A stretch of 64,000 nucleotides of DNA, taken from Escherichia phage vB_EcoM_ESCO47. The DNA lies in sequence record OM386662.1; one strand, 5' to 3'. The notes under the pieces are model-generated. The model ran no database searches. It saw only the letters and a program-made list of their open reading frames with translations, and was not told the origin of the DNA. A program made the position numbers and the translations under genes. Numbering within the stretch: position 1 is the stretch's first letter; the number at the start of each line of letters is the position of its first letter. Shown here one piece after another: positions 2,964 through 63,397 of the stretch.

Positions 2964-2991
2964 AGTCCTATCAAATAAAGAGGAGAACAAA

Positions 2992-3099
2992 ATGAAACTT
3001 TTGCTTATTGTATATGTTGTGATACAATACAACTATCCGATGTTCACATTCAATATGGTGAACAATATAATAAATCTTATTGAGAAGAGCATACAATGA
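2992..3099 (+). CDS. Small hydrophobic ORF (35 aa)
   Basis: ATG 7 nt after AGGAG; below ORF-track cutoff; ATGA overlap with next gene. Confidence 0.3.
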   Translation: MKLLLIVYVVIQYNYPMFTFNMVNNIINLIEKSIQ

Positions 3100-3305
3100 G
3101 TTTATACGATCCTAGCGGTGATTCTGAAAATGGCGTTATCCTTTTAAAAGGTGAACGAACCAAAGAAATGGATATTGATGATGTTGAAGTGTCAAGTTGG
3201 ACCTTGATACCTGGTGGGATTTGTCTTGAACAGGACGATAACTTCATTTGCCTAGACGCTGGCCAAGTAGAAGCTCTCTATAGTATTTTAAAACATAACC
3301 GTTAA
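3096..3305 (+). CDS. Hypothetical protein
   Basis: 69-aa ORF. Confidence 0.4.
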   Translation: MSLYDPSGDSENGVILLKGERTKEMDIDDVEVSSWTLIPGGICLEQDDNFICLDAGQVEALYSILKHNR

Positions 3306-3317
3306 GAGGAAATTATT

Positions 3318-3872
3318 ATGATTATTGAAACATCTGTTCTGTTTGGCGACCTGACAGCCGATGTAATTGATAATGCAATCGTGCTTAAACAAGAAGATGA
3401 TACAGTTGTTCTGACCATCCGGGATATTCAGAGTCTGTACGACTTGTCTATTATTGACACAGAGCAATATATTAGAGCGAACAGTCGACTTTTTAAAATC
3501 AATGATGAAGTCGTTGCCCGGTTACATCGTGGTGAAAACGGTTTTAATCTGGAAACCGAATGGGTTTGTTTATCCATTAATAACCGTTCAGAATTTTTAG
3601 AGAAAATTTTTAAACTGTTCCAAGAAGAGTGTGTACCTGAGCTTGAGTGGAAAGTCCCGGGTTGTGATGCAGTTATGCATTCAAGCGAAACCTTTGAAGG
3701 TGATGAAGAAGGTGATTATAATACTGAATTCAGTGTCCACCAACATCAAGGTCGCGATATGTTATCTATCATCCAAACCCACGATGGTGAAGCTGAAGTA
3801 GTATTCACTAAAGACGAATTGAAAGTTCTGGTAAAATACCTGAACACTATTATCCCAACTATGAACGCGTAA
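3318..3872 (+). CDS. Hypothetical protein
   Basis: 184-aa ORF with GAGG RBS. Confidence 0.5.
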   Translation: MIIETSVLFGDLTADVIDNAIVLKQEDDTVVLTIRDIQSLYDLSIIDTEQYIRANSRLFKINDEVVARLHRGENGFNLETEWVCLSINNRSEFLEKIFKLFQEECVPELEWKVPGCDAVMHSSETFEGDEEGDYNTEFSVHQHQGRDMLSIIQTHDGEAEVVFTKDELKVLVKYLNTIIPTMNA

Positions 3873-5712: not shown

Positions 5713-6714
5713 ATGAGTAAATTGGAGAATAAAATGTTCAACGTTCAAATCAAAAAAGGTATCTATCGTAATAACGAAATCTCTGGTTCTTATGTCGCCA
5801 CAAAGACCTGGTTCCCGGCAAAGCTTAATCCTGAGTGTTCTCACCTCGGTGATGGTAAAGTTTTCATTATGATTGATGGTTCTGAACGTGGAGTATGGGT
5901 CTTTAAATCAGATATCGTTATGGAAGGAGTTGAGACCTCTCCAGTTACAGTTGTTGAAAGCAACGAAGACATGAAAACTCGTATCAATAAACGCTTTAAA
6001 GTAATGAATATGATGACGAATGGCATTATCAATGGCAAAATTCGTTCACTCATTATTTCAGGTGCAGCTGGTATTGGTAAAACGTATTCTCTGGATAAAG
6101 CACTTAATAACGCTAATGATAATGGTTTCATCAAATACAAAAGCATTAATGGTAAAATCTCTGGTATTGGCCTTTACGAACAACTTTGGCTCAACCGTGA
6201 TGCAGACAGCGTTCTCTTAATCGACGACGTTGATGTATTCTCAGATATGGACATCTTGAACCTTCTTAAAGCAGCATTAGATACTGGTGATAAACGCAAA
6301 GTTTGTTGGAGCACTGCGTCATCTTATCTCGATGATAAGGGTATTGATAAAGAATTTGAGTTTGAAGGTACTATCGTTTTCATTACAAACGTTGATATCG
6401 ATAAAGAGTTAGAACGCGGTTCGAAACTTGCTCCACACCTTCAGGCTTTAGTATCTCGTTCAGTGTATCTTGACCTTGGAGTACACTCTAATGAAGAGAT
6501 TATGGTTCGAGTTGAAGATGTAATATTATCTACTGACATGATGCAGAAACGTGGTCTGACTGATGCAGAAACGTATAAAGCATTATCTTGGATGAAGGCT
6601 AACGTATCTCGTCTTCGCAATGTATCATTACGTACGGCTCTTTATGTAGCAGATTTTATTTCAACTGATAAAGATGGTTGGGAGGAAATCTCTGAAGTAA
6701 CTTTACTGAAATAA
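5713..6714 (+). CDS. P-loop ATPase (AAA-like)
   Basis: Walker A GAAGIGKT and Walker-B-like LLIDDVD. Confidence 0.55.
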   Translation: MSKLENKMFNVQIKKGIYRNNEISGSYVATKTWFPAKLNPECSHLGDGKVFIMIDGSERGVWVFKSDIVMEGVETSPVTVVESNEDMKTRINKRFKVMNMMTNGIINGKIRSLIISGAAGIGKTYSLDKALNNANDNGFIKYKSINGKISGIGLYEQLWLNRDADSVLLIDDVDVFSDMDILNLLKAALDTGDKRKVCWSTASSYLDDKGIDKEFEFEGTIVFITNVDIDKELERGSKLAPHLQALVSRSVYLDLGVHSNEEIMVRVEDVILSTDMMQKRGLTDAETYKALSWMKANVSRLRNVSLRTALYVADFISTDKDGWEEISEVTLLK

Positions 6715-7723: not shown

Positions 7724-7785
7724 ACGCTTTACCCAAGGATGGGTTATAATGGTTTTGAGTTCCAATTCAATCTGAGGAAATAGAT

Positions 7786-8763
7786 ATGAGTATTACATCA
7801 AACGCAGTAAAACATGAAATCAATGTATTATGCTCCAAACAACTTCCGATTTGGTTTGCTACCAGCAATCGTCGCGAATCTCTTAATTATGAAGCGATCG
7901 CTGTTCAAGTTCATCAACTGTTAATTACTAAATTTGATTTCCATGTACCGTCAGAAATCTATATTAAGTTGGCTATTACGTTGCTTAAAGAGTGCAAAAA
8001 TTATGGTCGCTCTATGGCAGACGGTATTTTCAACGCGTTGAACAAGCTTAATGTTCTGTCAATGGTTAACTCAAACAATATTTTGCGTAATCTCGGACGT
8101 ACTGATCTGTTCTGTCGTGAAAAAGGTAAAATGACACTCAAACAGATCGCCCATCATCTCAACCAGAACCAGTCTAGGTTTATCGCAGTATCGGCACGGT
8201 TACAGACTGGTCTGAATCGTCAGATGAATTTTAAAACGTTTTCAAAATATCCGGGTTATAACGAATTCTTTAAATGCGAAGTCCAGAACATTGGTGGTAA
8301 AACCGTGTTGGTTGTTCGTGTAACATTTGAAGGACGTCGTCAGCATTATTTTAATATTATCGGGTCCGGCCTTCAACATTTAGGTTTTATCGACGAAGTT
8401 AAGATTTTACGTCAACCGAACGGATTCTCGATTGGGTACGAATGCACGTTAAAAGATGAGTTTTTAGAAAAAGCTCCTCCTAAATTCGTTGAAGCACCGC
8501 CGATTATGGCAACACGTGATATTGCCGAAGAAGACAAGCTTCAAGAGCTTATCGACAATCTTGAATCAGGATTTGATCAACCTGTACAGAAATTTAAATC
8601 AAAACATGCTGAACAAATCAAATATTTTGAAGAACTGATTAATGAGCTTAATGTAACTATTCAACAGACTGACGATGAAATCTCTCGATTAGCCGGTATG
8701 AATGGTAAAAATAAAACCGAACGAGCTAATCTTATTCAGGTTGTAAAACTTCTTAAGGAATGA
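7786..8763 (+). CDS. Hypothetical protein
   Basis: 325-aa ORF. Confidence 0.5.
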   Translation: MSITSNAVKHEINVLCSKQLPIWFATSNRRESLNYEAIAVQVHQLLITKFDFHVPSEIYIKLAITLLKECKNYGRSMADGIFNALNKLNVLSMVNSNNILRNLGRTDLFCREKGKMTLKQIAHHLNQNQSRFIAVSARLQTGLNRQMNFKTFSKYPGYNEFFKCEVQNIGGKTVLVVRVTFEGRRQHYFNIIGSGLQHLGFIDEVKILRQPNGFSIGYECTLKDEFLEKAPPKFVEAPPIMATRDIAEEDKLQELIDNLESGFDQPVQKFKSKHAEQIKYFEELINELNVTIQQTDDEISRLAGMNGKNKTERANLIQVVKLLKE

Positions 8764-8821
8764 TGTACAACCAAGGACGGATGGAGTATAATCATTCTAT
8801 CTTAACCAAGAGGAGAACATT

Positions 8822-9775
8822 ATGAAAACTCGTTCACATTACATTGATTACTTTGCAGGTCTTATCGCTAACGTTCATGCCCAACGTGCTTCTGGTGTAC
8901 TAGGATTTGATGTTCCACACCGAGATGTAGTAAGTGGTATTCTTCGAGATTTTGGTACATACATAGGCCAAGAAAATCATATCTGTAAAGATACTCAAAA
9001 TGCATATTCTCATTCATTAGGGACACTGCTTCAATGGTTCAAACGTTCTCGTTTATTATCTTCTACTGTAGCTCGCGATAACATTAAAAACTTTATGAAG
9101 CCGAGCTTTATTAAATCTGTGACATCTAAAACCGATTTGGTTGAATTCACTATTGTTAATGATGTTAAAAAGACTCGTTTGGCTGATTGGTTAACTACCA
9201 TTCCTGAAACTAAATTTGCTGATAAATTTGCTTGTGAATTCAATAACCAAGTGAATATGCTTTTTAAACATTCTCGTAAATTATTCACAGGCGGCGATGA
9301 TCGTACAAATACAGTTCATGCTAAAGATTGGGTTACTGCAGTGTTCAAACCAACCGGTAATGGTACCGCATCATTATCAATTGATATTCAGGTTCCTTAT
9401 TATTACTCACGTAATCTCGGCACCATGAAAGCTGAAGAAATTAAGAAGCACAATAAAACCATTCGTTCGCTGACTTATAAACTTCGCATGATGTTAAGAA
9501 TCATGGACGTGGTAGAAATGTATGATGAAACCGAAGATAACGGTTCAATGTTATTCAGTTCTCGTATTCAAATTAAGCTGAAGAACCCTAATACGTATAA
9601 ACCTAAGCCTATTAAAGAACCTAAAGTAGAAAAAGTTGATAATTTAAGAGAAGAACGCGAATATCTCAAATCTCGTCTGAAAGAAGTCGAAGCCCAGATT
9701 GCAGAACAAACTAAATCGTTAAAAGCTCTGAATGCGAAAGCGGATGGTTTACGAAATGCCATTGAGGTTTTATAA
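8822..9775 (+). CDS. Hypothetical protein with C-terminal coiled coil
   Basis: 317-aa ORF; AGGAG RBS; heptad-like charged C-terminus. Confidence 0.5.
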   Translation: MKTRSHYIDYFAGLIANVHAQRASGVLGFDVPHRDVVSGILRDFGTYIGQENHICKDTQNAYSHSLGTLLQWFKRSRLLSSTVARDNIKNFMKPSFIKSVTSKTDLVEFTIVNDVKKTRLADWLTTIPETKFADKFACEFNNQVNMLFKHSRKLFTGGDDRTNTVHAKDWVTAVFKPTGNGTASLSIDIQVPYYYSRNLGTMKAEEIKKHNKTIRSLTYKLRMMLRIMDVVEMYDETEDNGSMLFSSRIQIKLKNPNTYKPKPIKEPKVEKVDNLREEREYLKSRLKEVEAQIAEQTKSLKALNAKADGLRNAIEVL

Positions 9776-17879: not shown

Positions 17880-17915
17880 TGCTTTAAGACGGGTCTTCAA
17901 ATATTATGATATAAT
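17880..17915 (+). promoter_or_regulatory. Putative promoter upstream of gene 55 (atypical)
   Basis: TGCTTTA box 17880-17886; TATAAT 17910-17915 followed by AGACCTATGAA box; no clear -35. Confidence 0.3.
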
Positions 17916-17944
17916 AGACCTATGAATTGAGCCAAGAGGTACTT

Positions 17945-18505
17945 ATGACTAATGTAAAGTTAACCAAAAATAACTATGTAAATAACAAAGAGCTTCTCGC
18001 TGCTATAACGGAGTGGAAAAAGGAGCTCCTAAATAATAAAGACCATAATAAAATTGTTCGACAGAATGATACAATAGGGTTGGCAATTATGCTAATTGCT
18101 GAAGGTCTCTCTAAACGTTTTAACTTTTCAGGATACACCCAGTCTTGGAAACAAGAAATGATTGCCGACGGAATTGAAGCTTCTATTAAAGGACTTCATA
18201 ATTTTGATGAGACTAAATACACTAACCCACATGCATACATAACTCAAGCTTGTTTTAATGCTTTTGTCCAACGTATCAAAAAAGAGCGTAAGGAAGTTGC
18301 AAAGAAATATAGTTACTTCGTTCATAATGTCTATGACAGCCATGACGATGATATGGTAGCGTTGGTAGATGAAACCTTTATTCAGGACATTTACGATAAA
18401 ATGACGCATTACGAAGAATCTGCTTATAAAGCTCCTGGGGCTGAAAAGAAGGAAACTGTTCGCGATTCACCAAGTTTGGATTTTTTATATGAGGACGACA
18501 ATTGA
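17945..18505 (+). CDS. 55: Late-transcription sigma factor gp55
   Basis: 186 aa from MTNVKL after GAGGT; [12 protein letters not shown]...EWKKEL region matches my recollection of T4 gp55. Confidence 0.8.
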
Positions 18506-18707
18506 CATCTCTAATTTTTTAGAAGAACCATTTGATGAAGCATTACCTTATTCCGTAAAAATGTTGGGTCGAGAAGCATTTAAAATTAATTTCGATATCG
18601 ACCCTTTAAATCCACATGACGTATCCTTTTCAATTAATGGACAAGAAGTTGAGTACACGTTTAGTATTGAAGAGGATGGACGTTTTTATTTTAATTTGAT
18701 GAGATAA
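18489..18707 (+). CDS. Hypothetical protein
   Basis: 72-aa ORF overlapping end of gene 55. Confidence 0.35.
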
Positions 18708-18708
18708 T

Positions 18709-19074
18709 ATGAATACCGAGATTATTGAAAGCGCTGAACATAAATTGGCTAAAGAATTTGAAGAAATTCGTGAAGCCGAAAACAAAGAAGCCGAAGATAA
18801 AGTAGCCAAAATGCTACAAGAAATCCAAAAGAAAAATGAAGCTGAAGCCGCTAAGAAAGCCGAAAAGATTCTTAAAAAGAATCGCGGTGAACTCAACCGT
18901 CTTTATGCTCATGCGCAAGAAGCTGCAATTCAAAATAACTTCGAAGCTTATGAATACGCTATTAAAAAATCTCGTGATATTCTGCGTCAACCTTACACCG
19001 ACGAATTGATTAAAATTCAGTGGGTTACCACTCGTCAGGCTATTGAGGATATCATTAATGGCATTAGTAAATAA
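18709..19074 (+). CDS. Coiled-coil protein
   Basis: 121 aa, charged E/K/A-rich. Confidence 0.45.
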   Translation: MNTEIIESAEHKLAKEFEEIREAENKEAEDKVAKMLQEIQKKNEAEAAKKAEKILKKNRGELNRLYAHAQEAAIQNNFEAYEYAIKKSRDILRQPYTDELIKIQWVTTRQAIEDIINGISK

Positions 19075-19258
19075 ACCATTTAAACGGCTTCTAGTAGGAG
19101 CCGCTTTTAGACTTCGCTCTTATGGTGATATTTGTATCAAGCAGTCCGAAACCGAATACAAAATGATTGGACGTACGTCTGATGGTATTTTTCAGATTGA
19201 GCCTGTAGCGAAGGTATGGGTAGATTCACATCAACTTAAAAAATGGTGGCAGCGTTGA
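19058..19258 (+). CDS. Hypothetical protein
   Basis: ORF-track 19043..19258; internal ATG 19058 more plausible. Confidence 0.3.
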   Translation: MALVNKPFKRLLVGAAFRLRSYGDICIKQSETEYKMIGRTSDGIFQIEPVAKVWVDSHQLKKWWQR

Positions 19259-19267
19259 ATAATTTAA

Positions 19268-19293
19268 AGGAAGCACTAGTGCTTCCTTTTTTT
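19268..19293 (+). terminator. Rho-independent terminator
   Basis: AGGAAGCAC-TA-GTGCTTCCT then TTTTTT. Confidence 0.6.
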
Positions 19294-19317
19294 GCTTTCT
19301 ATACGGGATGATAGAAT
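19293..19317 (+). promoter_or_regulatory. MotA-box middle promoter upstream of gene 47
   Basis: TGCTTTC then 19 nt to TAGAAT; shares GGATGATAGAAT with the gene 39 promoter. Confidence 0.45.
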
Positions 19318-19341
19318 GAATTATCTTAATGAGGAAATGAT

Positions 19342-20361
19342 ATGAAAATTTTGCAATTAGGTGACTTCCATATCGGGGTCAAACAAGACGACCCATGGGT
19401 TCAAGATATTCAGCGTGACGGCATTCGACAAGCAATTGAGTATTCTAAGAAAAACGGAATTAACACATGGATTCAATATGGTGATTGGTTTGATGTCCGT
19501 AAAGCAATAACACATCGCACAATGGAATTTAACCGTGAACTGGTCAACATGATTACTAAAGCTGGTATTCGTGTCCATGTAACTATCGGGAATCATGACA
19601 TTGCGTTCAAGAATACAATAACACCAAATACGGTTTCTGAACTACTTACCCAATTTGAAAACTTTACAATCTATGAACATCCAACTACAGTAGATTTCGA
19701 CGGTTGTCTTATTGATATTATTCCATGGATGTGTGAAGAGAATACAGGCGAAATCTTAGAACATATCAAAACGAGTTCAGCCGCGTATTGTGTTGGGCAC
19801 TGGGAACTGAATGGCTTTTATTTCTATAAAGGAATGAAGTCTCATGGGCTTGAACCTGATTTCTTAAAGACTTATAAACAAGTCTGGTCCGGCCACTTCC
19901 ACACAATCTCTGAAGCTGCTAACGTCAAATATATTGGGACACCATGGACCCTTACTGCAGGTGATGAGAATGATCCTCGCGGATTCTGGGTATTTGACAC
20001 TGATGTTGAACGTATGGAATTTATTCCTAATGAAACAACATGGCATCGACGAATCACTTATCCGTTTAAAGGCAAAATCAATTATTCTGATTATACTAAT
20101 CTAGCCGTACGTGTTATAGTATCAGAAATTGATTCAGAGTTGACTAAGTTTGAATCTGAACTTGAAAAAGTAGTTCACTCTCTTCGTATGGTTTCTAAAG
20201 TTGATAACAGTGTTGAATCTGATGACGACCAGGAAATCGAGATTAAATCACTTCAAGATATCATTAAAGAATATATTGACGCGATTCCAGATATCTCGGA
20301 CGAAGACAGAGAAGCGCTGGTCAAATATTCCAACGAACTTTATATTGAGGCAACACAATGA
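19342..20361 (+). CDS. 47: Recombination nuclease subunit gp47 (Mre11-like)
   Basis: 339 aa; MKILQLGDFH, GNHD phosphoesterase motifs. Confidence 0.85.
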   Translation: MKILQLGDFHIGVKQDDPWVQDIQRDGIRQAIEYSKKNGINTWIQYGDWFDVRKAITHRTMEFNRELVNMITKAGIRVHVTIGNHDIAFKNTITPNTVSELLTQFENFTIYEHPTTVDFDGCLIDIIPWMCEENTGEILEHIKTSSAAYCVGHWELNGFYFYKGMKSHGLEPDFLKTYKQVWSGHFHTISEAANVKYIGTPWTLTAGDENDPRGFWVFDTDVERMEFIPNETTWHRRITYPFKGKINYSDYTNLAVRVIVSEIDSELTKFESELEKVVHSLRMVSKVDNSVESDDDQEIEIKSLQDIIKEYIDAIPDISDEDREALVKYSNELYIEATQ

Positions 20362-20615
20362 CTTTAGATGAATTTAACAATGCTGGACTCAGGCTTGAAG
20401 TTGAAATGGACGTTAAAGATGATGATGGATTCGAGAACACTATCAAGTATTGGATTGAGCCATTACGCGTTGAAGGCAATGAAGTTAAAGCAGTTCATGT
20501 CTGCACCGACTGGGCTATTGAATTTAGCTTTAATATAATGGACGACGATACTCCTGGCTCTATTCTTAAAATGGCTGAAGCATGTATCAAGGATGCGTAT
20601 AATGACGAAGACTGA
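20358..20615 (+). CDS. Hypothetical acidic protein
   Basis: 85-aa ORF, ATGA coupling. Confidence 0.45.
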   Translation: MTLDEFNNAGLRLEVEMDVKDDDGFENTIKYWIEPLRVEGNEVKAVHVCTDWAIEFSFNIMDDDTPGSILKMAEACIKDAYNDED

Positions 20616-20841: not shown

Positions 20842-22526
20842 AATCATTTAAATTAAATCGTGTTCGTTATAAAAATATAATGTCTGTTGGGCAAAATTTT
20901 ATCGATATCCAATTAGATAAAGTCCAAAAGACCTTAATCACAGGTAAAAATGGTGGTGGTAAATCTACGATGTTAGAAGCCATCACTTTTGGACTTTTCG
21001 GCAAACCATTTCGTGATGTTAAGAAAGGACAAATCATTAATAGCACGAACAAGAAAGAGCTCTTAGTTGAGCTTTGGATGGAATTCGATGATAAAAAATA
21101 CTTCATCAAACGAGGTCAAAAGCCCAATATTTTCGAAATCTCCGTTGACGGTGTTCGTCTCGATGAATCTGCCAGCAGTCGTGACTTCCAAGAAGAATTT
21201 GAACGTAGCATCGGAATGTCCTATGCGTCTTTTAAACAAATCGTCGTTCTTGGTACAGCAGGGTATACCCCTTTCATGGCTCTTAGCACCCCAGCTCGTA
21301 GAAAACTTGTCGAAGACCTTTTAGAAGTCGGCACACTCGCTGAAATGGATAAAATCAATAAGTCTCAAGTTCGCGAACTTAATTCCCGGGGGCAAGTTCT
21401 CGATGCCAAGAAAGATGGTGTTATCCAACAAATTAAGATTTATAATGAGAATATCGAACGTCAAAAGAAATTATCCGGTGATAATGTAGCTCGTCTACAG
21501 AATATGTATGATGACCTGGCTAAAGAAGCTCGGTCATTAAAAGCAGAAATCGAAGAAGCTAATGAGCGACTACTTAATATCGTTCTTGACGAAGACCCTA
21601 CTGAGGCATTCAACAAGATAGGACAAGAAGCATTATTGATTAAATCTAAAATTGACTCATATAACAAAGTTATTAAGATGTATCATGACGGCGGTACATG
21701 TCCTACTTGTGCATCACAGTTGCACCAGGGTGATCCTATTGTCTCTAAGATTACCGATAAGCTTCATGAATGTAATCACTCATTCGAGCAACTTACCTGT
21801 CACAGAGATAATCTGAGTGTCCTAGTGGACGAATATAGAGCTAATGTTAAGACTAAACAGGACCTTGCATCTGATATTCGTACCAAGAAACAAGCAATGA
21901 TTGCCACTATTGATAAAGCTAAGAAAGTTAAAGCTGCAATAGAGCAAGCCTCAGCAGAATTTATCGACCATGCCGATGAGATAGCTTTGCTTCAAAAAGA
22001 ACTTGATAAAATCATTAAAACAAAATCGGATATCGTTCTTGAAAAATACCATCGTGGTATTATCACAGATATGTTAAAAGATTCTGGTATTAAAGGTGCT
22101 ATCATTAAAAAATATGTGCCTCTGTTCAACAAGCAGATTAACCATTACCTTAAAATCATGGAAGCTGATTACGTGTTTTCTATTGATGAAGAATTCAATG
22201 AATCTATAAAATCCCGTGGTCGTGAAGATTTTAGTTATGCTTCATTTAGCCAAGGTGAAAAAGCACGTATTGATATCGCTTTATTGTTCACATGGCGAGA
22301 TATTGCTGAAAAGGTTTCTGGTGTTAGAATCAATACATTAATTATGGACGAAGTCATGGATTCCGCGACTGATTCTGAAGGTATTAAAGCTATTTCAACA
22401 ATTCTTAACTCTCTAACCGATGCAAACGTGTTTATAATTAGTCACAGAGACCATGACCCACAAGCTTATGGACAACATCTTCAAATGAGCAAAGTTGGAC
22501 GATTTACTGTAATGAAAGCCTCTTAA
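20838..22526 (+). CDS. 46: Recombination ATPase gp46 (Rad50/SbcC-like)
   Basis: 562 aa; Walker A GKNGGGKST, CPTC zinc hook, C-terminal LIMDEV Walker B. Confidence 0.9.
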   Translation: MKSFKLNRVRYKNIMSVGQNFIDIQLDKVQKTLITGKNGGGKSTMLEAITFGLFGKPFRDVKKGQIINSTNKKELLVELWMEFDDKKYFIKRGQKPNIFEISVDGVRLDESASSRDFQEEFERSIGMSYASFKQIVVLGTAGYTPFMALSTPARRKLVEDLLEVGTLAEMDKINKSQVRELNSRGQVLDAKKDGVIQQIKIYNENIERQKKLSGDNVARLQNMYDDLAKEARSLKAEIEEANERLLNIVLDEDPTEAFNKIGQEALLIKSKIDSYNKVIKMYHDGGTCPTCASQLHQGDPIVSKITDKLHECNHSFEQLTCHRDNLSVLVDEYRANVKTKQDLASDIRTKKQAMIATIDKAKKVKAAIEQASAEFIDHADEIALLQKELDKIIKTKSDIVLEKYHRGIITDMLKDSGIKGAIIKKYVPLFNKQINHYLKIMEADYVFSIDEEFNESIKSRGREDFSYASFSQGEKARIDIALLFTWRDIAEKVSGVRINTLIMDEVMDSATDSEGIKAISTILNSLTDANVFIISHRDHDPQAYGQHLQMSKVGRFTVMKAS

Positions 22527-23239
22527 TGAGGCTTATGTTTACAGTTATCAAAATGCCAACGATGCATATTAGCAGGGATCCCTATTTTATCGCAATGAGG
22601 ACATTTAATTTTCTTGTCCTCTTTTTTCTTTCTGTTAGGATTTGATTTACAGAATTTTATATGCGGCTTTAACGCCGATAACTTAGTAGTTAAGCCACAA
22701 AACGGGCAAGAATCTTCTTTCCAAATTTTCGTGGCCATGGTTTTAATTATTTTATCCTTTGTTTCTTGATCAAGTTTTACTATTTTAGGCGTAGGGCCTT
22801 GTTTACAGTTATCAAAATGCCAACGTCTCATGTTTCCTTCAGTGCCAGTTAAACCGCAGTGTGGACATGTAATCTTTGGTTTATTTTTTGCAGACTCGGA
22901 CATTTTCTTACGAGTTTCAGCAGTGAATTCTTTGTTCTTTTGAACTTCTTGATTCTTACGTCGAAGCCATCCAAATAATTTGTTTTTGCTTCTATCTGCT
23001 TTAGGAGATGAGATAGTCATCATACGAGCAGCATATATTAAAGAGGCATTATCTGGATGGATTTTTACTAGCAGTTGATGTGCCAAATAATGTTCTTCTG
23101 GTGTTAAATCTACTAAGTTTAAAGCATCATCACTTCCACCTAAACATTGTGGTATAATGTAATGACGTTCTGTATAACCATCTAAACTTCTTGATTTAGC
23201 ATTGGTGATAAGCTTTTCGTATATTGAGTTATAATTCAT
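22523..23239 (-). CDS. Free-standing HNH homing endonuclease with three C-terminal zinc-finger-like repeats
   Basis: HYIIPQCLGGSDDALNLVDLTPEEHYLAHQL HNH motif; three CP(H/F)CG...H(F/I)...CK repeats; only sizeable minus-strand gene in the block. Confidence 0.65.
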   Translation of the reverse strand: MNYNSIYEKLITNAKSRSLDGYTERHYIIPQCLGGSDDALNLVDLTPEEHYLAHQLLVKIHPDNASLIYAARMMTISSPKADRSKNKLFGWLRRKNQEVQKNKEFTAETRKKMSESAKNKPKITCPHCGLTGTEGNMRRWHFDNCKQGPTPKIVKLDQETKDKIIKTMATKIWKEDSCPFCGLTTKLSALKPHIKFCKSNPNRKKKEDKKIKCPHCDKIGIPANMHRWHFDNCKHKPH

Positions 23240-23521: not shown

Positions 23522-23938
23522 ATGTTTACTACTGCTAAAGGTTTTACTGCTGCTGATCTGAAAGTTACTTCTATTCGTACTGACGCTAACCCACATAACC
23601 GGAATCGTGTTCGTAAAGCATGGGTCCTGCATTGTGATGATGTAAGCGCTAAGAAACTTCAGTCTCTGCCACAAGAAATTAAATTCATGCTGTATGGTTT
23701 CATTGATAATGATGTTTCCGATAAGTGGATCGAACTAATGCGCAAACATCGTGAAAATGCTATCGCAGCTGGTGGTAAAATGATTCTAGATAAAGATGGT
23801 TCAGAACGATTGGAAGACTTCTATTGTGTAGACTCAAATGACCAACTTATTGCAGCCGGTGAAATTGTAGCTGCTAAGATTCCAGAATATATTGAAACAC
23901 TGCCTGAAGCTATTAAAAAGCAAATGGTTGCTGCATAA
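23522..23938 (+). CDS. rpbA: RNA polymerase-binding protein RpbA
   Basis: Position between 46 and 45 and size as in T4; start chosen at MFTTAKGF. Confidence 0.55.
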   Translation: MFTTAKGFTAADLKVTSIRTDANPHNRNRVRKAWVLHCDDVSAKKLQSLPQEIKFMLYGFIDNDVSDKWIELMRKHRENAIAAGGKMILDKDGSERLEDFYCVDSNDQLIAAGEIVAAKIPEYIETLPEAIKKQMVAA

Positions 23939-23987
23939 TATTTTTGATATAAAATAAACTTCTTGATTTGAATTGAAAGGAAATAAA

Positions 23988-24674
23988 ATGAAACTGACTA
24001 AAGACACCATCGCTATTCTTAAAAACTTTGCTTCCATTAACTCTGGTGTCATGCTTACTCCAGGTAAGTTTATTATGACTCGGGCTATTAACGGAACCAC
24101 ATATGCTGAAGCAACTATTACTGACGAAATTGATTTTGAAGTTGCTCTTTATGACCTTAACAGTTTTTTAAGTATTCTGAGTCTTGTTTCTGATGATGCA
24201 GAAATTTCTATGAATGAAGACGGTAATATTAAAATCGCCGACACTCGTTCTACTGTTTACTGGCCAGCCGCAGACAAGAGTACAATCGTATTCCCTAACA
24301 AACCAATTCAGTTCCCGGTAGCATCGGTTATCACTGAAATTAAAGCTGAAGACCTTCAGCAATTGCTTCGAGTTTCACGTGGACTCCAGATCGATACAAT
24401 TGCTATCACTAATAAAGATGGTAAAATCGTTGTAAATGGTTATAACAAAGTTGAAGACTCTGGTCTTACTCGTCCTAAGTATTCTTTGACTCTGACTGAT
24501 TATGATGGTTCTAATAACTTCAACTTTGTAATCAATATGGCTAACATGAAAATTCAACCAGGCAATTACAAAGTTATGCTCTGGGGAGCTGGTGATAAAG
24601 TTGCAGCCAAGTTCGAAAGCTCTCAAGTTAGTTATGTTATTGCAATGGAAGCTGATTCCACTCACGATTTCTAA
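23988..24674 (+). CDS. 45: Sliding clamp gp45
   Basis: 228 aa from MKLTKDT; same length as T4 gp45. Confidence 0.85.
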   Translation: MKLTKDTIAILKNFASINSGVMLTPGKFIMTRAINGTTYAEATITDEIDFEVALYDLNSFLSILSLVSDDAEISMNEDGNIKIADTRSTVYWPAADKSTIVFPNKPIQFPVASVITEIKAEDLQQLLRVSRGLQIDTIAITNKDGKIVVNGYNKVEDSGLTRPKYSLTLTDYDGSNNFNFVINMANMKIQPGNYKVMLWGAGDKVAAKFESSQVSYVIAMEADSTHDF

Positions 24675-24741
24675 GCTTTACGTTTAATATGTTATGATTT
24701 GGAGGAGAAATCCTCCACTTTTTGATAATGAGGAAAATTAT

Positions 24742-26722: not shown

Positions 26723-29434
26723 ATGCAAGAATTTTATTTGACAGTAGAACAGATTGGTGACTCAATTTTCGAACGTTATATCGATTCTAACGGTCGTGAA
26801 CGTGTTCGTGAAGTAGAGTATAAGCCATCATTGTTTGCACATTGTCCCGAAAGTCAGGCTACAAAATATTTTGATATCTATGGTAAACCATGTACTCGTA
26901 AGTTATTCGCTAATATGCGTGACGCATCTCAGTGGATTAAACGCATGGAAGATATCGGTCTTGAAGCATTAGGTATGGACGATTTTAAATTGTCTTATAT
27001 CAGTGATACGTATCCGGTTGATATCAAATACGACCATACTAAAATTCGTGTAGCGAACTTTGACATCGAAGTAACATCTCCTGACGGGTTCCCTGAGCCG
27101 TCACAAGCAAAACATCCTATTGATGCTATCACTCATTATGACTCAATTGATGACAGGTTTTATGTATTTGACCTTTTGAATTCTCCATATGGTAATGTAG
27201 AAGAATGGTCTATCGAAATTGCGGCTAAGCTTCAAGAACAAGGCGGTGATGAAGTTCCATCCGAAATTATCGACAAAATTGTTTATATGCCGTTTGATAA
27301 TGAAAAAGAATTATTGATGGAATATCTCAATTTCTGGCAACAGAAAACTCCTGTCATTTTAACCGGATGGAACGTTGAGACATTTGATATTCCATATGTG
27401 TATAACAGAATCAAGAATATTTTTGGTGAATCCACAGCAAAACGGTTGTCACCACATCGCAAGACTCGTGTTAAAGTTATTGAAAACATGTATGGTTCAC
27501 GAGAAATCATTACATTGTTTGGTATCTCTGTTCTTGATTATATCGACCTTTACAAAAAGTTCTCTTTCACGAACCAACCGTCATATTCTCTGGACTATGT
27601 TTCAGAATTTGAATTGAATGTTGGTAAACTGAAATACGACGGTCCTATTTCTAAACTTCGCGAAAGTAATCATCAACGATATATAAGCTATAACATCATC
27701 GACGTATATCGTGTATTGCAAATTGATGCTAAACGCCAGTTCATTAACTTGAGCTTGGACATGGGTTATTATGCTAAAATTCAGATTCAATCTGTGTTCA
27801 GTCCAATTAAAACTTGGGACGCTATTATTTTTAATAGCCTTAAAGAACAAAACAAGGTGATTCCACAAGGTCGTTCGCATCCAGTTCAACCTTACCCGGG
27901 TGCTTTTGTTAAGGAACCTATTCCAAATCGATACAAATATGTGATGAGCTTCGACCTCACATCTCTGTATCCAAGCATCATTCGCCAAGTGAATATTAGC
28001 CCAGAAACAATAGCAGGAACGTTTAAAGTAGCTCCATTACATGATTATATTAACGCTGTTGCTGAACGTCCTTCTGATGTGTACAGTTGTTCTCCTAACG
28101 GCATGATGTATTATAAAGACCGTGACGGTGTTGTTCCAACTGAAATCACTAAAGTCTTTAATCAACGTAAAGAACATAAAGGTTATATGCTTGCGGCTCA
28201 ACGTAATGGTGAAATAATTAAAGAGGCCTTACATAATCCTAATCTTTCTGTTGATGAACCATTAGATGTTGATTATCGTTTTGACTTCACTGACGAGATT
28301 AAAGAAAAGATTAAAAAGTTGTCTGCTAAATCTCTTAATGAAATGTTGTTTAGAGCTCAACGTACTGAAGTTGCAGGTATGACTGCACAAATTAACCGTA
28401 AATTGCTCATCAACTCGCTTTATGGTGCACTTGGAAACGTTTGGTTCCGTTATTACGATTTGCGTAATGCAACTGCAATCACAACATTCGGTCAAATGGC
28501 TTTACAATGGATTGAACGTAAAGTTAATGAATATCTTAACGAAGTTTGTGGTACACAAGGCGAAGCTTTCGTTCTATATGGTGATACAGACTCCATTTAC
28601 GTATCTGTAGATAAAATTATTGATAAGGTTGGTGAATCTAAATTCCGCGATACTAACCATTGGGTAGACTTCTTAGATAAGTTCGCTCGTGAACGTATGG
28701 AACCTGCTATTGATAGAGGTTTCCGTGAAATGTGCGAATACATGAATAATAAGCAACATTTGATGTTCATGGACCGAGAAGCTATCGCTGGGCCTCCGCT
28801 TGGTTCTAAAGGTATTGGTGGATTCTGGACTGGTAAGAAACGTTATGCATTAAACGTGTGGGATATGGAAGGAACCAGATACGCTGAACCTAAGCTTAAA
28901 ATCATGGGTCTCGAAACACAGAAATCTTCGACTCCTAAAGCAGTACAGAAAGCTCTTAAGGAATGTATTCGTCGTATGCTTCAGGAAGGCGAAGAATCAT
29001 TACAAGAATATTTTAAAGAGTTTGAAAAAGAGTTCCGTCAGCTGGATTATATTAGCATCTCATCAGTGTCATCGGCAAATAACATTGCTAAATATGATGT
29101 CGGTGGATTCCCAGGTCCTAAATGTCCATTCCATATTCGTGGAATTCTGACATATAACCGAGCTATCAAAGGTAATATTGATGCTCCACAAGTTGTAGAA
29201 GGTGAAAAGGTATACGTTCTGCCTTTACGTGATGGAAACCCGTTCGGTGATAAATGTATCGCATGGCCATCTGGTACAGAAATCACTGATTTGATTAAAG
29301 ACGACGTGCTTCGTTGGATGGACTACACTGTTCTCCTTGAGAAGACATTTATTAACCCACTTGAAGGATTCACGTCAGCAGCGAAACTCGATTATGAGAA
29401 GAAAGCATCTCTGTTCGATATGTTCGATTTTTGA
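26723..29434 (+). CDS. 43: DNA polymerase gp43 (family B)
   Basis: 903 aa; exonuclease FDIE and polymerase YGDTDS motifs; near-identical to my recollection of RB69 gp43. Confidence 0.95.
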   Translation: MQEFYLTVEQIGDSIFERYIDSNGRERVREVEYKPSLFAHCPESQATKYFDIYGKPCTRKLFANMRDASQWIKRMEDIGLEALGMDDFKLSYISDTYPVDIKYDHTKIRVANFDIEVTSPDGFPEPSQAKHPIDAITHYDSIDDRFYVFDLLNSPYGNVEEWSIEIAAKLQEQGGDEVPSEIIDKIVYMPFDNEKELLMEYLNFWQQKTPVILTGWNVETFDIPYVYNRIKNIFGESTAKRLSPHRKTRVKVIENMYGSREIITLFGISVLDYIDLYKKFSFTNQPSYSLDYVSEFELNVGKLKYDGPISKLRESNHQRYISYNIIDVYRVLQIDAKRQFINLSLDMGYYAKIQIQSVFSPIKTWDAIIFNSLKEQNKVIPQGRSHPVQPYPGAFVKEPIPNRYKYVMSFDLTSLYPSIIRQVNISPETIAGTFKVAPLHDYINAVAERPSDVYSCSPNGMMYYKDRDGVVPTEITKVFNQRKEHKGYMLAAQRNGEIIKEALHNPNLSVDEPLDVDYRFDFTDEIKEKIKKLSAKSLNEMLFRAQRTEVAGMTAQINRKLLINSLYGALGNVWFRYYDLRNATAITTFGQMALQWIERKVNEYLNEVCGTQGEAFVLYGDTDSIYVSVDKIIDKVGESKFRDTNHWVDFLDKFARERMEPAIDRGFREMCEYMNNKQHLMFMDREAIAGPPLGSKGIGGFWTGKKRYALNVWDMEGTRYAEPKLKIMGLETQKSSTPKAVQKALKECIRRMLQEGEESLQEYFKEFEKEFRQLDYISISSVSSANNIAKYDVGGFPGPKCPFHIRGILTYNRAIKGNIDAPQVVEGEKVYVLPLRDGNPFGDKCIAWPSGTEITDLIKDDVLRWMDYTVLLEKTFINPLEGFTSAAKLDYEKKASLFDMFDF

Positions 29435-29475
29435 TATAATGCCATGGACGGCAAACTAACCTAAATGAGAGAAAT

Positions 29476-30108
29476 ATGAAAACCACTCCTATTACTATCG
29501 CAATTGACGCAATCGTAAAGCAAGCTTCATCTCTGGCTACTATGGCTAAAGTAATTAGTCAAAATTCAGCTCGATACAATGCCATTCTTGAAACCTTGCG
29601 ACGTCCTGGTCTGAGTAATTATGAAAGTCGTGTAATTATTACCGGTGTCGGTAAAAATGCTAATATCGCAACTAAAGCTTCTGAAACATTTGCTTCACTC
29701 GGTATCCCGAGTATGTACTTGAACACTGGGCATTATTCTCACGGTGATGCAGGATTCATTGCGCCTAATGATGTGTTGATTCATATTAGTCGTTCTGGTA
29801 AAACTGAAGAAATGATTGGCGTGGCTAAGCATCTTAAAATGATTCGTCCGAACGTCAAACAGATTCTGTTGCATTGTAACCCGGACATTCCACAAGAAAA
29901 TGAAGCCCTTTTTGATTACTCTTTCTGTACAGGCATCGCAGTAGAGGTTGATGAGAATTCTCTGGCTCCGACTATGTCAACTACATTGTTGTTAGCGCTT
30001 ATCGATACGTTTGCTATCAACCTTTCATCTGAACGTGGATTTACCTCTAATGACTTCCTTAAGTTCCACCCTGGTGGTGCACTAGGTGCCATGTTACGAG
30101 GCGAATAA
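29476..30108 (+). CDS. SIS-domain sugar-phosphate isomerase, KdsD/GutQ-like (putative arabinose-5-phosphate isomerase)
   Basis: VIITGVGKNANIATKASETFASLG...HGDAGFI...ISRSGKTEE...LAPT.STT...HPGGALG parallels the KdsD SIS domain; no CBS domains. Confidence 0.65.
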   Translation: MKTTPITIAIDAIVKQASSLATMAKVISQNSARYNAILETLRRPGLSNYESRVIITGVGKNANIATKASETFASLGIPSMYLNTGHYSHGDAGFIAPNDVLIHISRSGKTEEMIGVAKHLKMIRPNVKQILLHCNPDIPQENEALFDYSFCTGIAVEVDENSLAPTMSTTLLLALIDTFAINLSSERGFTSNDFLKFHPGGALGAMLRGE

Positions 30109-30251
30109 TGAAAGCAATAGCAATAGGACTTTTACTATTGATGCTTGTTATGACTATCTACTGGAGCTTAACTGCTCCAGTAATGGTTCCGACTCTTATA
30201 ATCGGATGGATTATGATTGGACTACAAGCAAAGTATGAATGCTTTAACTAG
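30108..30251 (+). CDS. Small membrane ORF (47 aa)
   Basis: TAATG coupling to SIS gene; two hydrophobic segments; below ORF-track cutoff. Confidence 0.3.
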   Translation: MKAIAIGLLLLMLVMTIYWSLTAPVMVPTLIIGWIMIGLQAKYECFN

Positions 30252-30292
30252 AATAGTGTACAATACTCCTACTTACCAATGAGGACCACAAC

Positions 30293-31978
30293 ATGAAAAA
30301 AGCTGTTATTCTTGGTGCTGGACTGGCAACTCGTTTGTATCCAATAACGCATCATATTCCTAAGGTGCTTGTTAACTATAAACAAGACACTATTCTGAGC
30401 AATTTGTATACAATTTATTCTGATCTTGGCGCAGACGAAATTATTGTAGTAGTTCATTCAAAATTTGCTGAAACTGTTCGAGCTTATTGTGAGCAAGAAG
30501 GGTTCAATGTGACTATTCGTACAGTTGATGAAGCGTATGGATCTGCTTATGCTCTTGCTAAATTACACAAAGATTTAGACGGCCATAATGTAATTGTTAA
30601 CTGGTGTGATATTATTCCTGATTTTGGTTCATGGTCATGGAATGTTAACGCAATCTATGTTAAGGGCGACGAATGTCGATATAATTTCGACGGTGAAAAT
30701 ATCACTAACGTAGGTTCAACAGGTGGTAATGTTGTAGGAATTTATCAGTTCAAAGACTGGGAATTCTATATGGGTTCTACCGATGAGGAAATTCATGAAT
30801 ACTGCAAAGGACGTGATTTCGTAGAATTCCTTTACGGCAGCGCATTCAATAAATCAGAGCTTATGAATCTAATTGATTTAGGTGATATGCCTAAACTTGA
30901 AAAAGCTCATGAAGTTCGTGAACTTAATCGTAGTTTTAATGCAGTTGAAATTGGTGAAGAAACTGTAACTAAATTCGCATTAACCGAACAGGGTCGAGCT
31001 CTTCAGAAAGATGAGATTTCATGGTATCTTAAAGTGAAATCAGATTCAGTTCCTCAGTTAGTTTCTGTTAATGAAAATAACTTTGAAATGGAACGCATTA
31101 AAGGTAGGCCGGCATTTGAATATATTAAATCCAAATCAAGTCTTGCTCGTCCACAAATTGTTGATGCAATTTTAGATGCACTGAAATTCAGCACAGACAC
31201 TTATTTTGTAAGTCCTGAAACTGTTCGTCGTGATTTCACTAAAGAATTCTATACTAAAGTTATTGATCGTTGTGAAAGCATTCAACCATTGATTGATTCA
31301 TTTGGTAAAATCACACATGTGAACTACACCAAGATTGGACGTCTGAAGCCAATGCTGAAACAAGCTTTAGAACACCTTATTCGTTATCATAACCGTTCTC
31401 AGGGACAGTACTCTGTTATTCATGGTGACCCGAACTTCAGTAATACTATGATTACTGATAACGGCGAAGTCAAGTTTATCGACCCTCGTGGATATTTTGG
31501 CGAAACCAAGATTTACGGCCCGAAATTGTATGATGAAGCTAAAGTGCTTTATGCTGTTTCAGGTTATGATGAATTCAATGCTAATCCGACCTGGGGGCAG
31601 TTTACTATTGATGAAACAACTTGTAATGTGTCTATTAACATCAATCCATTAGTTTACAAATATGGAAAGATGAGTTCGTTTAACGAGTATCATCATTTGG
31701 CAGTGGCAATTATCTGGATTGCATTAGGTGGTTATTTCAAGAATAATCCACTTAAAGCGGTAGCCGCATATTATAAAGGTATGGAACTTCTGACTAAGCA
31801 ATTACGTAACATGGGCCGTGTACTTCAGGACGGCTCTATTAGTTATGACGTAGCAGAACCTGTAACGGCTACACTGATTACAAAAAATCCTGGTAAATGG
31901 GTACTAACTGATAAAGAAACTGGTGTTTCCTATCGTCCAATCGGTGGCGATATCACTCATCAATGGGAACGAATCTAA
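30293..31978 (+). CDS. Bifunctional sugar-1-phosphate nucleotidyltransferase (N-terminal) / kinase-like (C-terminal) protein
   Basis: N-terminal AVILGAGLATRLYPIT...PKVLV nucleotidyltransferase signature; C-terminal HGDPNFSNTMI...FIDPRGYF resembles the APH/choline-kinase catalytic loop. Confidence 0.6.
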   Translation: MKKAVILGAGLATRLYPITHHIPKVLVNYKQDTILSNLYTIYSDLGADEIIVVVHSKFAETVRAYCEQEGFNVTIRTVDEAYGSAYALAKLHKDLDGHNVIVNWCDIIPDFGSWSWNVNAIYVKGDECRYNFDGENITNVGSTGGNVVGIYQFKDWEFYMGSTDEEIHEYCKGRDFVEFLYGSAFNKSELMNLIDLGDMPKLEKAHEVRELNRSFNAVEIGEETVTKFALTEQGRALQKDEISWYLKVKSDSVPQLVSVNENNFEMERIKGRPAFEYIKSKSSLARPQIVDAILDALKFSTDTYFVSPETVRRDFTKEFYTKVIDRCESIQPLIDSFGKITHVNYTKIGRLKPMLKQALEHLIRYHNRSQGQYSVIHGDPNFSNTMITDNGEVKFIDPRGYFGETKIYGPKLYDEAKVLYAVSGYDEFNANPTWGQFTIDETTCNVSININPLVYKYGKMSSFNEYHHLAVAIIWIALGGYFKNNPLKAVAAYYKGMELLTKQLRNMGRVLQDGSISYDVAEPVTATLITKNPGKWVLTDKETGVSYRPIGGDITHQWERI

Positions 31979-32364
31979 TGCACCGTGTAGAAAACATGCT
32001 TAATCTTTGTTTTGATGTCGATGATTGCATCACGGAATGGAATAACACTCGTGATTACGTGAACTTCAAGCCAGACAGCGAAATGGTGTCTGCTATTAAT
32101 GCCTTGTATGATGCAGGGCATACCATAACGCTTTACACTGCTCGCGGTATGAAGTCGGTAGGTCCTGGTCGTATAGCAATTGACATTCTCCCAAGTCTGA
32201 TTCAGAACTTGGAAAACATTGGTTTGAAGTACCATAATTTGCTAACACATAAACCAGTATATGATTGGATTATCGACGACAAAGCTATGCGTCCTGACGA
32301 ATTCAAAGCTCTTATGAATAAAGGCGAATTCGAAACATTTAAATCATATAAACCTAATCTATAA
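31978..32364 (+). CDS. Small HAD-like phosphatase (putative)
   Basis: LCFDVDDCIT (motif I-like), HTITLYTARG (motif II), YDWIIDDKA (motif IV-like); TAATG coupling. Confidence 0.45.
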   Translation: MHRVENMLNLCFDVDDCITEWNNTRDYVNFKPDSEMVSAINALYDAGHTITLYTARGMKSVGPGRIAIDILPSLIQNLENIGLKYHNLLTHKPVYDWIIDDKAMRPDEFKALMNKGEFETFKSYKPNL

Positions 32365-32421
32365 TAATTTAAGTAAGACCTGCAAAAACCATCGCGTCAA
32401 TTAACGTGAGATGCAAAAAAA

Positions 32422-33582
32422 ATGAATACTTTTAAAATCGGAACGAATTTTGATTTAGCTCTTCTTGATAAAATCGTAGAGCTCAATAAAACTTATCCTA
32501 ATAGCTTAATAAACGAAGTATACGGCTCTACAAGAGAAATGGCTTTTGTAGCAGCCAGACCTGATTTTAGGCTTCCTGACGTTGACAAAAAGATGTTAGA
32601 AGATTACGTTAAACGTTGTAACGAATTAGGTATTTGCTTTAACTATACACTCAACACGATAAATCCTGGTTCAAAAAGAGAACTAGTTGAGTGGAAGAAG
32701 AAAGCTATTCAGGATTATGTTCAGTATCTTTGGTCAATAGGCGTATGGCGTATTACTATCGCTAACCCTGTTGTTATGGAAATTGTTCGTGAAGTCAATA
32801 AAGACATTGAGATTGAAGTTTCAACAATTCTACATGTCGATGCTGTAACTCAAATCAAATACTTGCATGACCAATATAATATTAAAAAGGTCTGTTGCGG
32901 AATTCATAAGAACCGTTCAGTTTCTTTCCTGAAGCGTGCAGCAGAGTTTTGCAATAAGAACAATATAATATTTGAAGTTCTTGTAAATGAGTTCTGTTCT
33001 AATGCTGGTAAAGGGTATACAACACATTGTAGTTATCGTGACTCTTGCTATATTTTCCATAGTACTGATGTTACAGTTGATGATGCTAAATCCTTAAACG
33101 GATATCCAATGCAACACTGCATTAAAGCTCGTGATACAGACCCATTTAACTGGTTGAGAACTCGTTTTGTTCGTCCTCAAGATTTGAAACTTTATAATGA
33201 TATTGGTATCACTCAATTCAAAGTTTCAGGACGTACAGGTAGCACAGACTACATTTTGAAAGTTCTTGAAGCATACGCTTCTGAAAAGTTTGAAGGTAAT
33301 TTGTTAGAACTGTGGAAGCCTTTAGAGACTATTTTCACTCTTGAAAATGAAACTGAGTTTTCACATACAGTAAATATTGAAACCTCTTTGTTAGATGGCT
33401 TTTTAGAAAAAAGGTGGTTCAGACATCCAGATTTCGATTGTGCTAATGAAATCTGCGGGACGACGTGTACATATTGTGAAAGATATTATAAACGTCAATT
33501 ATCTAAAAACGGGTTATCAGAAAATTCTATATCTATTATTGATATAACTAACTCTGATGACGCTTTGAGGTACCCGGAATGA
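32422..33582 (+). CDS. Peptidase-U32-family protein (PrtC/RlhA/TrhP/UbiU-like putative Fe-S enzyme)
   Basis: Architecture and blocks ITIANPVVMEIVRE, IEIEVST, IFEVLVNEFCSNAGKGYTTHCSYRDSC parallel the U32 core as I recall it. Confidence 0.5.
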   Translation: MNTFKIGTNFDLALLDKIVELNKTYPNSLINEVYGSTREMAFVAARPDFRLPDVDKKMLEDYVKRCNELGICFNYTLNTINPGSKRELVEWKKKAIQDYVQYLWSIGVWRITIANPVVMEIVREVNKDIEIEVSTILHVDAVTQIKYLHDQYNIKKVCCGIHKNRSVSFLKRAAEFCNKNNIIFEVLVNEFCSNAGKGYTTHCSYRDSCYIFHSTDVTVDDAKSLNGYPMQHCIKARDTDPFNWLRTRFVRPQDLKLYNDIGITQFKVSGRTGSTDYILKVLEAYASEKFEGNLLELWKPLETIFTLENETEFSHTVNIETSLLDGFLEKRWFRHPDFDCANEICGTTCTYCERYYKRQLSKNGLSENSISIIDITNSDDALRYPE

Positions 33583-33818
33583 TTTCTAGAAAAACTTTTA
33601 ACCACCAACTTAATGAAGAGATTTTGACTATGAAAATTAACAGCATCGAACAAATTCTTAAAAAGGCCCTTATGGGCCTGTTTGAAACTAAAGCGGCTAA
33701 AGTGATTAAAGAACCTGTTCAACTAGAATATTACGCTGATGCATTTCTTCATAGTGTTCTTGGAAGTATCGATGCTGAAGCTTTACGTTATATCAACATC
33801 GCTAAGAAATTCAAATAA
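33579..33818 (+). CDS. Hypothetical protein
   Basis: 79-aa ORF (alternative start ATG 33630). Confidence 0.35.
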   Translation: MISRKTFNHQLNEEILTMKINSIEQILKKALMGLFETKAAKVIKEPVQLEYYADAFLHSVLGSIDAEALRYINIAKKFK

Positions 33819-33860
33819 GCTTTATGAATTGAGTATATAATAAATTGTATTGAGGTAAAC

Positions 33861-35476: not shown

Positions 35477-35477
35477 A

Positions 35478-36026: not shown

Positions 36027-36047
36027 GAGCCTATTTAAAGTTTAAAA

Positions 36048-63358: not shown

Positions 63359-63397
63359 AGACCTATCAAAACAAAACAACCATTTGGAGAAATAAAA

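Follow-up and report, generated by a model that had tools for sequence, protein, structure and literature searches.

The cytosine modification of phage RB69 has been described in two papers. Thomas et al. (2018, PMC6024577) found no homologs of a-gt, b-gt or ba-gt in RB69, reported that its DNA contains arabinose, and proposed ORF003c as a candidate arabinosyltransferase. In the work of Lee et al. (2026, PMC13326640) the cytosine of RB69 was found to be fully replaced by mono- or poly-arabinosylated 5-hydroxycytosine, the arabinose being ether-linked to the 5-hydroxyl of the 5-hydroxycytosine. RB69 gp48 expressed in E. coli gave 5hodCMP, with the oxygen derived from O2 and a flavin bound to the protein, while gp46:47 was predicted to act as the first arabinosyltransferase and gp3 as the second, both with models resembling bacterial glycosyltransferases (PMC13326640). 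In both papers the genes of the pathway lie between gene 43 and uvsX (PMC6024577, PMC13326640), which is also their position in the DNA described here.

The window analysed was a stretch of 64,000 nucleotides (64 kb) from Escherichia phage vB_EcoM_ESCO47 (OM386662.1), and all positions are counted from its first letter. The best megablast matches of the window were all to Mosigvirus genomes, with approximately 91% nucleotide identity over 78-85% of the query. Along its entire length, the 6.7-kb stretch from gene 43 to uvsX (29.4-36.1 kb) matched RB69 and about 150 relatives at 96% identity. By these matches the phage is an RB69-like Mosigvirus, and its nucleotide identity of only about 91% to the sequenced relatives makes it look like a distinct, new species of this known genus.

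The interval between gene 55 and gene 47 of the window contained three small open reading frames on the plus strand, a putative terminator and a predicted MotA-box promoter, and no a-gt. Gene 55, encoding the late-transcription sigma factor, was located at 17945-18505 on the plus strand (phrog_234, E 4.4e-68), and its product shared 91% amino acid identity with T4 gp55 and 95.5% with RB69 gp55. The mechanically called frame (17927-18505) opens at a TTG at 17927; the likely start is the ATG at 17945, which follows an AAGAGG Shine-Dalgarno sequence. Gene 47, encoding an SbcD/Mre11-like nuclease subunit, was located at 19342-20361 on the plus strand (phrog_100, E 4e-133; Pfam Metallophos), with 76% amino acid identity to T4 gp47 and 97% to RB69 gp47. 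The genes for 46.2, 46.1 and gp46 follow gene 47 downstream.

The three small reading frames were each assigned to a family known from T4. The first (18489-18707, plus strand, 72 aa) matched Pfam DUF5491 (E 2.4e-15, 57 bits against a cutoff of 27) and phrog_1169 (E 5e-23), and is a homolog of a-gt.5 with 48% amino acid identity to the T4 protein and 87% to that of RB69. The second (18709-19074, plus strand, 121 aa) matched DUF2654 (E 1.4e-28, 99 bits against a cutoff of 25) and phrog_951 (E 3e-36), and is a homolog of a-gt.4, 60% identical to T4 and 93% identical to RB69 over the shared part, with an N-terminal insertion of 17 aa that RB69 and AV109 lack. The third matched phrog_1648 (E 1.2e-28) and is a homolog of a-gt.3, also on the plus strand, with 45% amino acid identity to T4 and 47% to RB69; it occupies either 19058-19258 from an ATG (66 aa) or 19043-19258 from a TTG (71 aa), the ATG at 19058 being the more likely start. 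At the nucleotide level this a-gt.3 allele was of the VR7/AV109 type, with 84-86% identity to VR7, VR25 and TH54 and to AV109. The assignments rest on profile matches above threshold together with the position of the genes directly 3' of gene 55. The genes are tightly packed, with an overlap of 17 nt between 55 and a-gt.5, a gap of 1 nt between a-gt.5 and a-gt.4, and an overlap of 17 nt between a-gt.4 and a-gt.3.

The order a-gt.5, a-gt.4, a-gt.3 was the same in the window, T4, RB69 and Jiaodavirus KP17. Since the trio also stands behind gene 55 in RB69 and KP17, these genes are conserved residents of the interval and not replacements of a-gt, a correction to the sequence-only reading, which had named them only as small ORFs. 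The a-gt.N names are positional only, and reading frames so named should not be read as glucosylation genes. Sequence searches of the PDB with the three small proteins gave nothing meaningful, and a full-text literature search for a-gt.2, a-gt.3, a-gt.4 and a-gt.5 found no paper. In Tequatrovirus, Mosigvirus and Jiaodavirus alike the trio comes after the late sigma factor gene, irrespective of how the phage modifies its cytosine. It may tentatively be viewed as an autonomous conserved module with a possible link to gp55 or late transcription and, its name notwithstanding, none to glycosylation, although we hold this to be somewhat less probable than the opposite.

Immediately after the a-gt.3 stop codon, alignment revealed a hairpin and a promoter shared with RB69, giving a clean junction. 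The putative intrinsic terminator (plus strand) consists of a hairpin at 19266-19289 with a 10-bp stem and a 4-nt loop, followed by a T-run to 19296. The predicted RNA fold had an energy of -13.5 kcal/mol and a z of -3.5, and an equivalent hairpin was found in RB69 and AV109. The predicted MotA-type middle promoter of genes 47/46 (19290-19317, plus strand) has the box tttTGCTTtc, a 12-nt spacer and the -10 element TAGAAT, so that TGCTTTC-N12-TAGAAT is read at 19293-19317, and is conserved in RB69. MotA promoters were defined by a TGCTT core that is followed, after 11-13 nt, by a TAnnnT -10 element, and by a motA gene encoded by the phage; the element has this arrangement, and motA is encoded at 63361-63999. 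The combination of MotA box and -10 motif was counted 24 times in the window where 6.1 were expected, a fourfold excess that was reached in 0 of 100 shuffled sequences. Judged from these motifs, the terminator would end the unit of 55, a-gt.5, a-gt.4 and a-gt.3, and the MotA-dependent middle promoter would restart transcription into genes 47/46. Both elements lie just beyond the segment 18489-19258 to which attention was first drawn, and still within the 55-47 interval. The earlier description of the interval as three small reading frames (72, 121 and 71 aa), a terminator and a MotA-type promoter without a-gt was borne out in every element.

In T4 the a-gt gene lies between 55 and 47, as the sequence-only reading had stated and the T4 gene order confirmed. 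No homolog of approximately 400 aa was present between the two genes of the window, where the reading frames are of 72, 121 and 66-71 aa. When T4 a-gt was compared with the 64-kb window by tblastn the best E value was 0.16; this match, at 5863-6099, falls inside an AAA-ATPase-like reading frame (phrog_1250) and was dismissed as fortuitous. With T4 b-gt or RB14 ba-gt as the query, the E values against the window were 0.5 or worse (tblastn, and phmmer with filters off). An HMM built from the a-gt sequences of T4 and KP17 and run with filters off against six-frame reading frames of at least 50 aa from the window gave a best E of about 0.7-0.8, with 6 bits or less, while gp47, used as the positive control of the filters-off HMM and phmmer searches, was recovered at E 1e-190. 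Pfam scans of selected large reading frames of the window, mainly those without a T4 homolog together with the modification cluster, gave no match to a glycosyltransferase family. Two 330-aa reading frames without Pfam matches (7759-8760 and 8792-9772) were considered as transferases and set aside; both fall into PHROGs without an assigned function, and neither resembles a-gt or b-gt in sequence.

The absence of glucosyltransferases established in this way covers the 64 kb of the window, out of a genome of some 168 kb. In Mosigvirus mar005p1, whose complete genome has 168,962 bp, a-gt, b-gt and ba-gt were likewise absent by tblastn and by HMM and phmmer searches with filters off. A search of the phage collection with T4 a-gt gave matches in 657 records, whose identity bands fitted Tequatrovirus (at least 90%), Jiaodavirus (approximately 66%) and a few distant phages, and none of the bands fitted the approximately 150 Mosigvirus records.

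All of the RB69 genes for cytosine arabinosylation were found in the window, at 94-100% amino acid identity and in the same places as in RB69. They bear out the earlier remark that new sugar genes lie elsewhere, namely an isomerase, a nucleotidyltransferase/kinase and a phosphatase at 29476-32364 and a second transferase at 54839-55939. The first is a predicted arabinose-5-phosphate isomerase (29476-30108; RB69 ORF055c, 98.6%; Pfam SIS; PMC13326640 Table 1). It is followed by a nucleotidyltransferase/sugar kinase fusion predicted to act in NDP-arabinose synthesis (30293-31978; RB69 ORF053c:052c, 99%; PMC13326640 Table 1), for which Pfam gave NTP_transferase and weak kinase-like matches, and by a predicted arabinose-5-P phosphatase (31963-32364; RB69 ORF051c, 96.9%; PMC13326640 Table 1). 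Taken together, the supply genes for NDP-arabinose showed amino acid identities of 97-99.5% with their RB69 homologs. A U32-peptidase-like protein (32422-33582; RB69 ORF050c, 99.2%; Pfam Peptidase_U32) lies next to these. All of these genes, and those of the set that follow, are on the plus strand.

The putative 5-hydroxy-dCMP synthase, which would replace T4 gene 42, is a thymidylate-synthase homolog at 33861-34577. It shares 99.2% amino acid identity with RB69 gp48, from which it differs by two substitutions (T17A and A127T), and its Cys163 (catalytic) and Asp194 (dCMP-specifying) align with Cys148 and Asp179 of T4 gp42. It was the sole match of the thymidylate-synthase family to a gp42 query in the window, and with only 25-29% identity to T4 gp42 it is not a T4-type gp42. 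The adjoining gene at 34577-35476 occupies the position of T4 b-gt and encodes predicted arabinosyltransferase 1 (RB69 gp46:47; PMC13326640 Table 1). It is a single reading frame in the window, with 98-100% amino acid identity to RB69 ORF047c and ORF046c and no sequence similarity to T4 a-gt or b-gt. The sequence-only reading had called this an unrelated gene in the b-gt slot, which holds for the sequence but not for the function, since the product is a predicted first DNA arabinosyltransferase (PMC13326640). Predicted arabinosyltransferase 2 lies at 54839-55939 (RB69 ORF003c, 97.5%; phrog_8302, E 3e-220; PMC6024577, PMC13326640). A thymidylate-kinase-like nucleotide kinase (RB69 ORF045c, 94.5%) was located at 35478-36026, and the gene 56 dCTPase at 43659-44180, with 96.5% identity to RB69 gp56 and 72% to T4 gp56. 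The gp56 dCTPase supplies dCMP and excludes dCTP from the DNA. With a 5hodCMP synthase, genes for the supply of NDP-arabinose and two predicted arabinosyltransferases, the window appears to encode a system of the RB69 type.

The explanation that best accounts for these observations, and one held with high confidence, is that the Mosigvirus lineage does without glucosyl-hmC, carries neither a-gt nor b-gt and uses arabinosyl-5-hydroxycytosine instead. Where no glucosyl-hmC is made, a DNA alpha- or beta-glucosyltransferase would be of no use to the lineage. In the proposed pathway the thymidylate-synthase homolog (33861-34577) would convert dCMP to 5-hydroxy-dCMP, which would then be phosphorylated and incorporated in DNA. 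The phage-encoded enzymes at 29476-32364 would lead from ribulose-5-P to NDP-arabinose, and the glycosyltransferases at 34577-35476 and 54839-55939 would arabinosylate the 5-hydroxyl on the DNA. By analogy the DNA of this phage should carry the same modification as that of RB69; the DNA chemistry and enzymology are those of the RB69 literature, and gene content, homologies and motifs are what was read from the present sequence. The 55-47 interval contains its conserved core alone, the trio behind gene 55; of the variable cargo of other T-even phages, neither a-gt.2 nor a homing endonuclease, a-gt or 47.1 is present.

It had been proposed that glucosylation was replaced here by another modification of hmC. 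Replacement by another sugar is supported, but the hmC part is not, as the base is very probably 5-hydroxycytosine: the thymidylate-synthase homolog is almost identical to the RB69 gp48 that makes 5-hydroxy-dCMP. The absence of a-gt is real but ordinary and already explained, having been published for RB69 in 2018, with the base revised to 5-hydroxycytosine in 2026. The label 'hmC modification' should become 5-hydroxycytosine, and the value of the result lies mainly in correct annotation. Classed as an arabinosyl-5hoC phage, this phage is predicted to be resistant to many restriction enzymes and would presumably be insensitive to defences directed against glucosyl-hmC.

The earlier claim that a-gt was lost combines an absence, which holds for the interval, the window and mar005p1, with a direction of change, for which loss is the more parsimonious polarity. 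This argument rests on pairwise identities rather than on a tree. Jiaodavirus KP17 carries a-gt in the same slot as T4, with 66% amino acid identity to the T4 protein, and its flanking gp47 and gp55 are 70% and 77% identical to those of T4. The divergence of the KP17 a-gt is thus like that of its neighbours, which fits vertical descent, and gp47 and gp55 of the window (76% and 91%) are nearer to T4 than those of KP17, which would place Mosigvirus within the a-gt-bearing clade. The opposite polarity, in which a-gt was never in Mosigvirus and was gained at this site by Tequatrovirus and Jiaodavirus, for instance with a homing endonuclease like mobB, draws on the character of the interval as a landing site for mobile elements, where mobB adjoins a-gt in T4 and an HNH endonuclease is found in AV109-type Mosigviruses, and on the lack of any detectable a-gt remnant in the window or RB69. 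Set against the shared slot in T4 and KP17, the matching divergence of the flanking genes and the closer affinity of the gp47 and gp55 of the window to T4, such a gain is unlikely, and loss of a-gt in the Mosigvirus lineage is preferred.

A short interval would also result if a-gt and a-gt.2 had been removed by an assembly artefact or by a deletion in the laboratory, and no record of the phage collection has the same uninterrupted junction from a-gt.3 through the terminator to gene 47, the matches to a 372-nt query spanning 609-815 nt. The junction is nevertheless clean, with the a-gt.3 stop followed by a complete hairpin and the promoter conserved in RB69, and the Mosigvirus relatives are all without a-gt, so that at most the 174-nt a-gt.2 would be affected; an artefact is accordingly very improbable. 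That the DNA is still glucosylated by an a-gt or b-gt homolog moved elsewhere, for which the only support is the remaining approximately 100 kb of the genome outside the window, is hardly credible, given that no such gene occurs in the complete mar005p1 genome or in RB69 (PMC6024577) and that the window has only an enzyme of the 5hodCMP-synthase type in place of the T4-type dCMP hydroxymethylase that would provide the hmC acceptor.

The comparison with T4 proposed in the sequence-only reading was made, and found the window to be without a-gt.2, mobB, a-gt and 47.1. In the direction of transcription the T4 interval reads 55, a-gt.5, a-gt.4, a-gt.3, a-gt.2, mobB, a-gt, 47.1, 47. The flanking genes, the order of the trio and the 17-nt overlap between 55 and a-gt.5 are common to T4 and the window, while a-gt.2, the HNH endonuclease mobB, the 400-aa alpha-glucosyltransferase and 47.1 are found in T4 only, with no counterparts at this spot of the window. 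A mobB/mobC-like HNH gene was observed elsewhere in the window, at 22523-23239 on the minus strand. A second difference lies between gene 43 and uvsX, where T4 has imm.1, imm, 42, b-gt and segA and the window has the arabinosylation cluster. KP17 shares gene 55, the three small a-gt.5, a-gt.4 and a-gt.3 homologs and gene 47 with the window, but keeps a-gt and has one extra small reading frame before gene 47.

The closest correspondence is with RB69 and the other Mosigviruses, in which the order 55, a-gt.5, a-gt.4, a-gt.3, terminator, middle promoter, 47 is the same and a-gt is likewise absent; imm and imm.1 are also relocated in the window as they are in RB69. Within the interval a-gt.2 is the sole RB69 gene missing from the window. 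The interval is seen here in the smallest form so far, being without a-gt.2, endonuclease and transferase. The RB69 a-gt.3 differs strongly from the VR7/AV109-type allele of the window, with only 47% identity. Since the window departs from RB69 both in its a-gt.3 allele and in having no a-gt.2, the interval is a mosaic. This allele and the minimal form of the interval, with a junction unseen in the phage collection, are new but minor additions to what is known of RB69 and its relatives.

The modification cluster, comprising the RB69-type cytosine-arabinosylation genes between gene 43 and uvsX, matched its relatives at a higher nucleotide identity than the regions compared outside it. Window positions 29000-37000 aligned with RB69 over their full length at 96% nucleotide identity, while searches of the phage collection with positions 1-25000 and 17900-20400 gave approximately 91% identity across 78-85% of the query, and the blocks outside the cluster matched the complete Mosigvirus genome mar005p1 at roughly 66-96%. 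The higher identity of the cluster could reflect either stronger constraint or a more recent exchange of the cluster. Two genes that are split in the RB69 GenBank record are each unsplit in the window: the 561-aa nucleotidyltransferase/kinase (30293-31978; ORF053c/052c) and the predicted 299-aa arabinosyltransferase 1 (34577-35476; ORF047c/046c). The latter agrees with the statement that the 046c/047c split in RB69 is a sequencing error, and 052c/053c have likewise been taken as a single protein (PMC13326640). The cluster also contains a U32-peptidase-like protein (32422-33582) with 99% identity to RB69 ORF050c, and its published assignment in the pathway ('sugar or heterocycle reductase') is so far only a guess.

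Within the 55-47 interval, the a-gt.4 homolog (18709-19074) carries a 17-aa insertion (ESAEHKLAKEFEEIREA) relative to RB69 and AV109, which is located in the charged N-terminal part; conservation reaches 93% in the C-terminal DUF2654 portion. The adjacent a-gt.3 (19058-19258) has only 47% amino acid identity to RB69 a-gt.3, but 84-86% nucleotide identity to the alleles of VR7/VR25/TH54-type phages and AV109, and this distribution of sequence similarity points to local mosaicism of the a-gt.3 region. The uninterrupted a-gt.3-terminator-gene 47 junction was absent from every record of the phage collection.

Homing endonucleases have a landing site between a-gt.3/a-gt.2 and gene 47. AV109-type Mosigviruses contain a 267-aa HNH gene there (2948-3751 of the AV109 sequence; phrog_10820, E 2.5e-75) and T4 has mobB beside a-gt (23886-24680 of the T4 sequence), whereas neither gene was found at window positions 19259-19341, between a-gt.3 and gene 47. 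A 238-aa HNH homing-endonuclease ORF is located on the minus strand at 22523-23239 (phrog_655, E 3e-64), flanked by gene 46 and 45.2 with all neighbours on the opposite strand. It has 43% amino acid identity to T4 MobB, the match covering the N-terminal half of MobB. Elsewhere, two neighbouring ORFs of about 330 aa each (7759-8760 and 8792-9772) were assigned to phrog_2257 and phrog_1435, both labelled unknown function in PHROG, and neither gave a Pfam match.

The window also differs from T4 in the position of imm.1 and imm, which in T4 lie between genes 43 and 42 but here are found at 39751-40420, in the gap between dmd and sp. The arabinose genes occupy the position that imm.1/imm have in T4, and the arrangement of imm.1/imm in RB69 is the same as that of the window.
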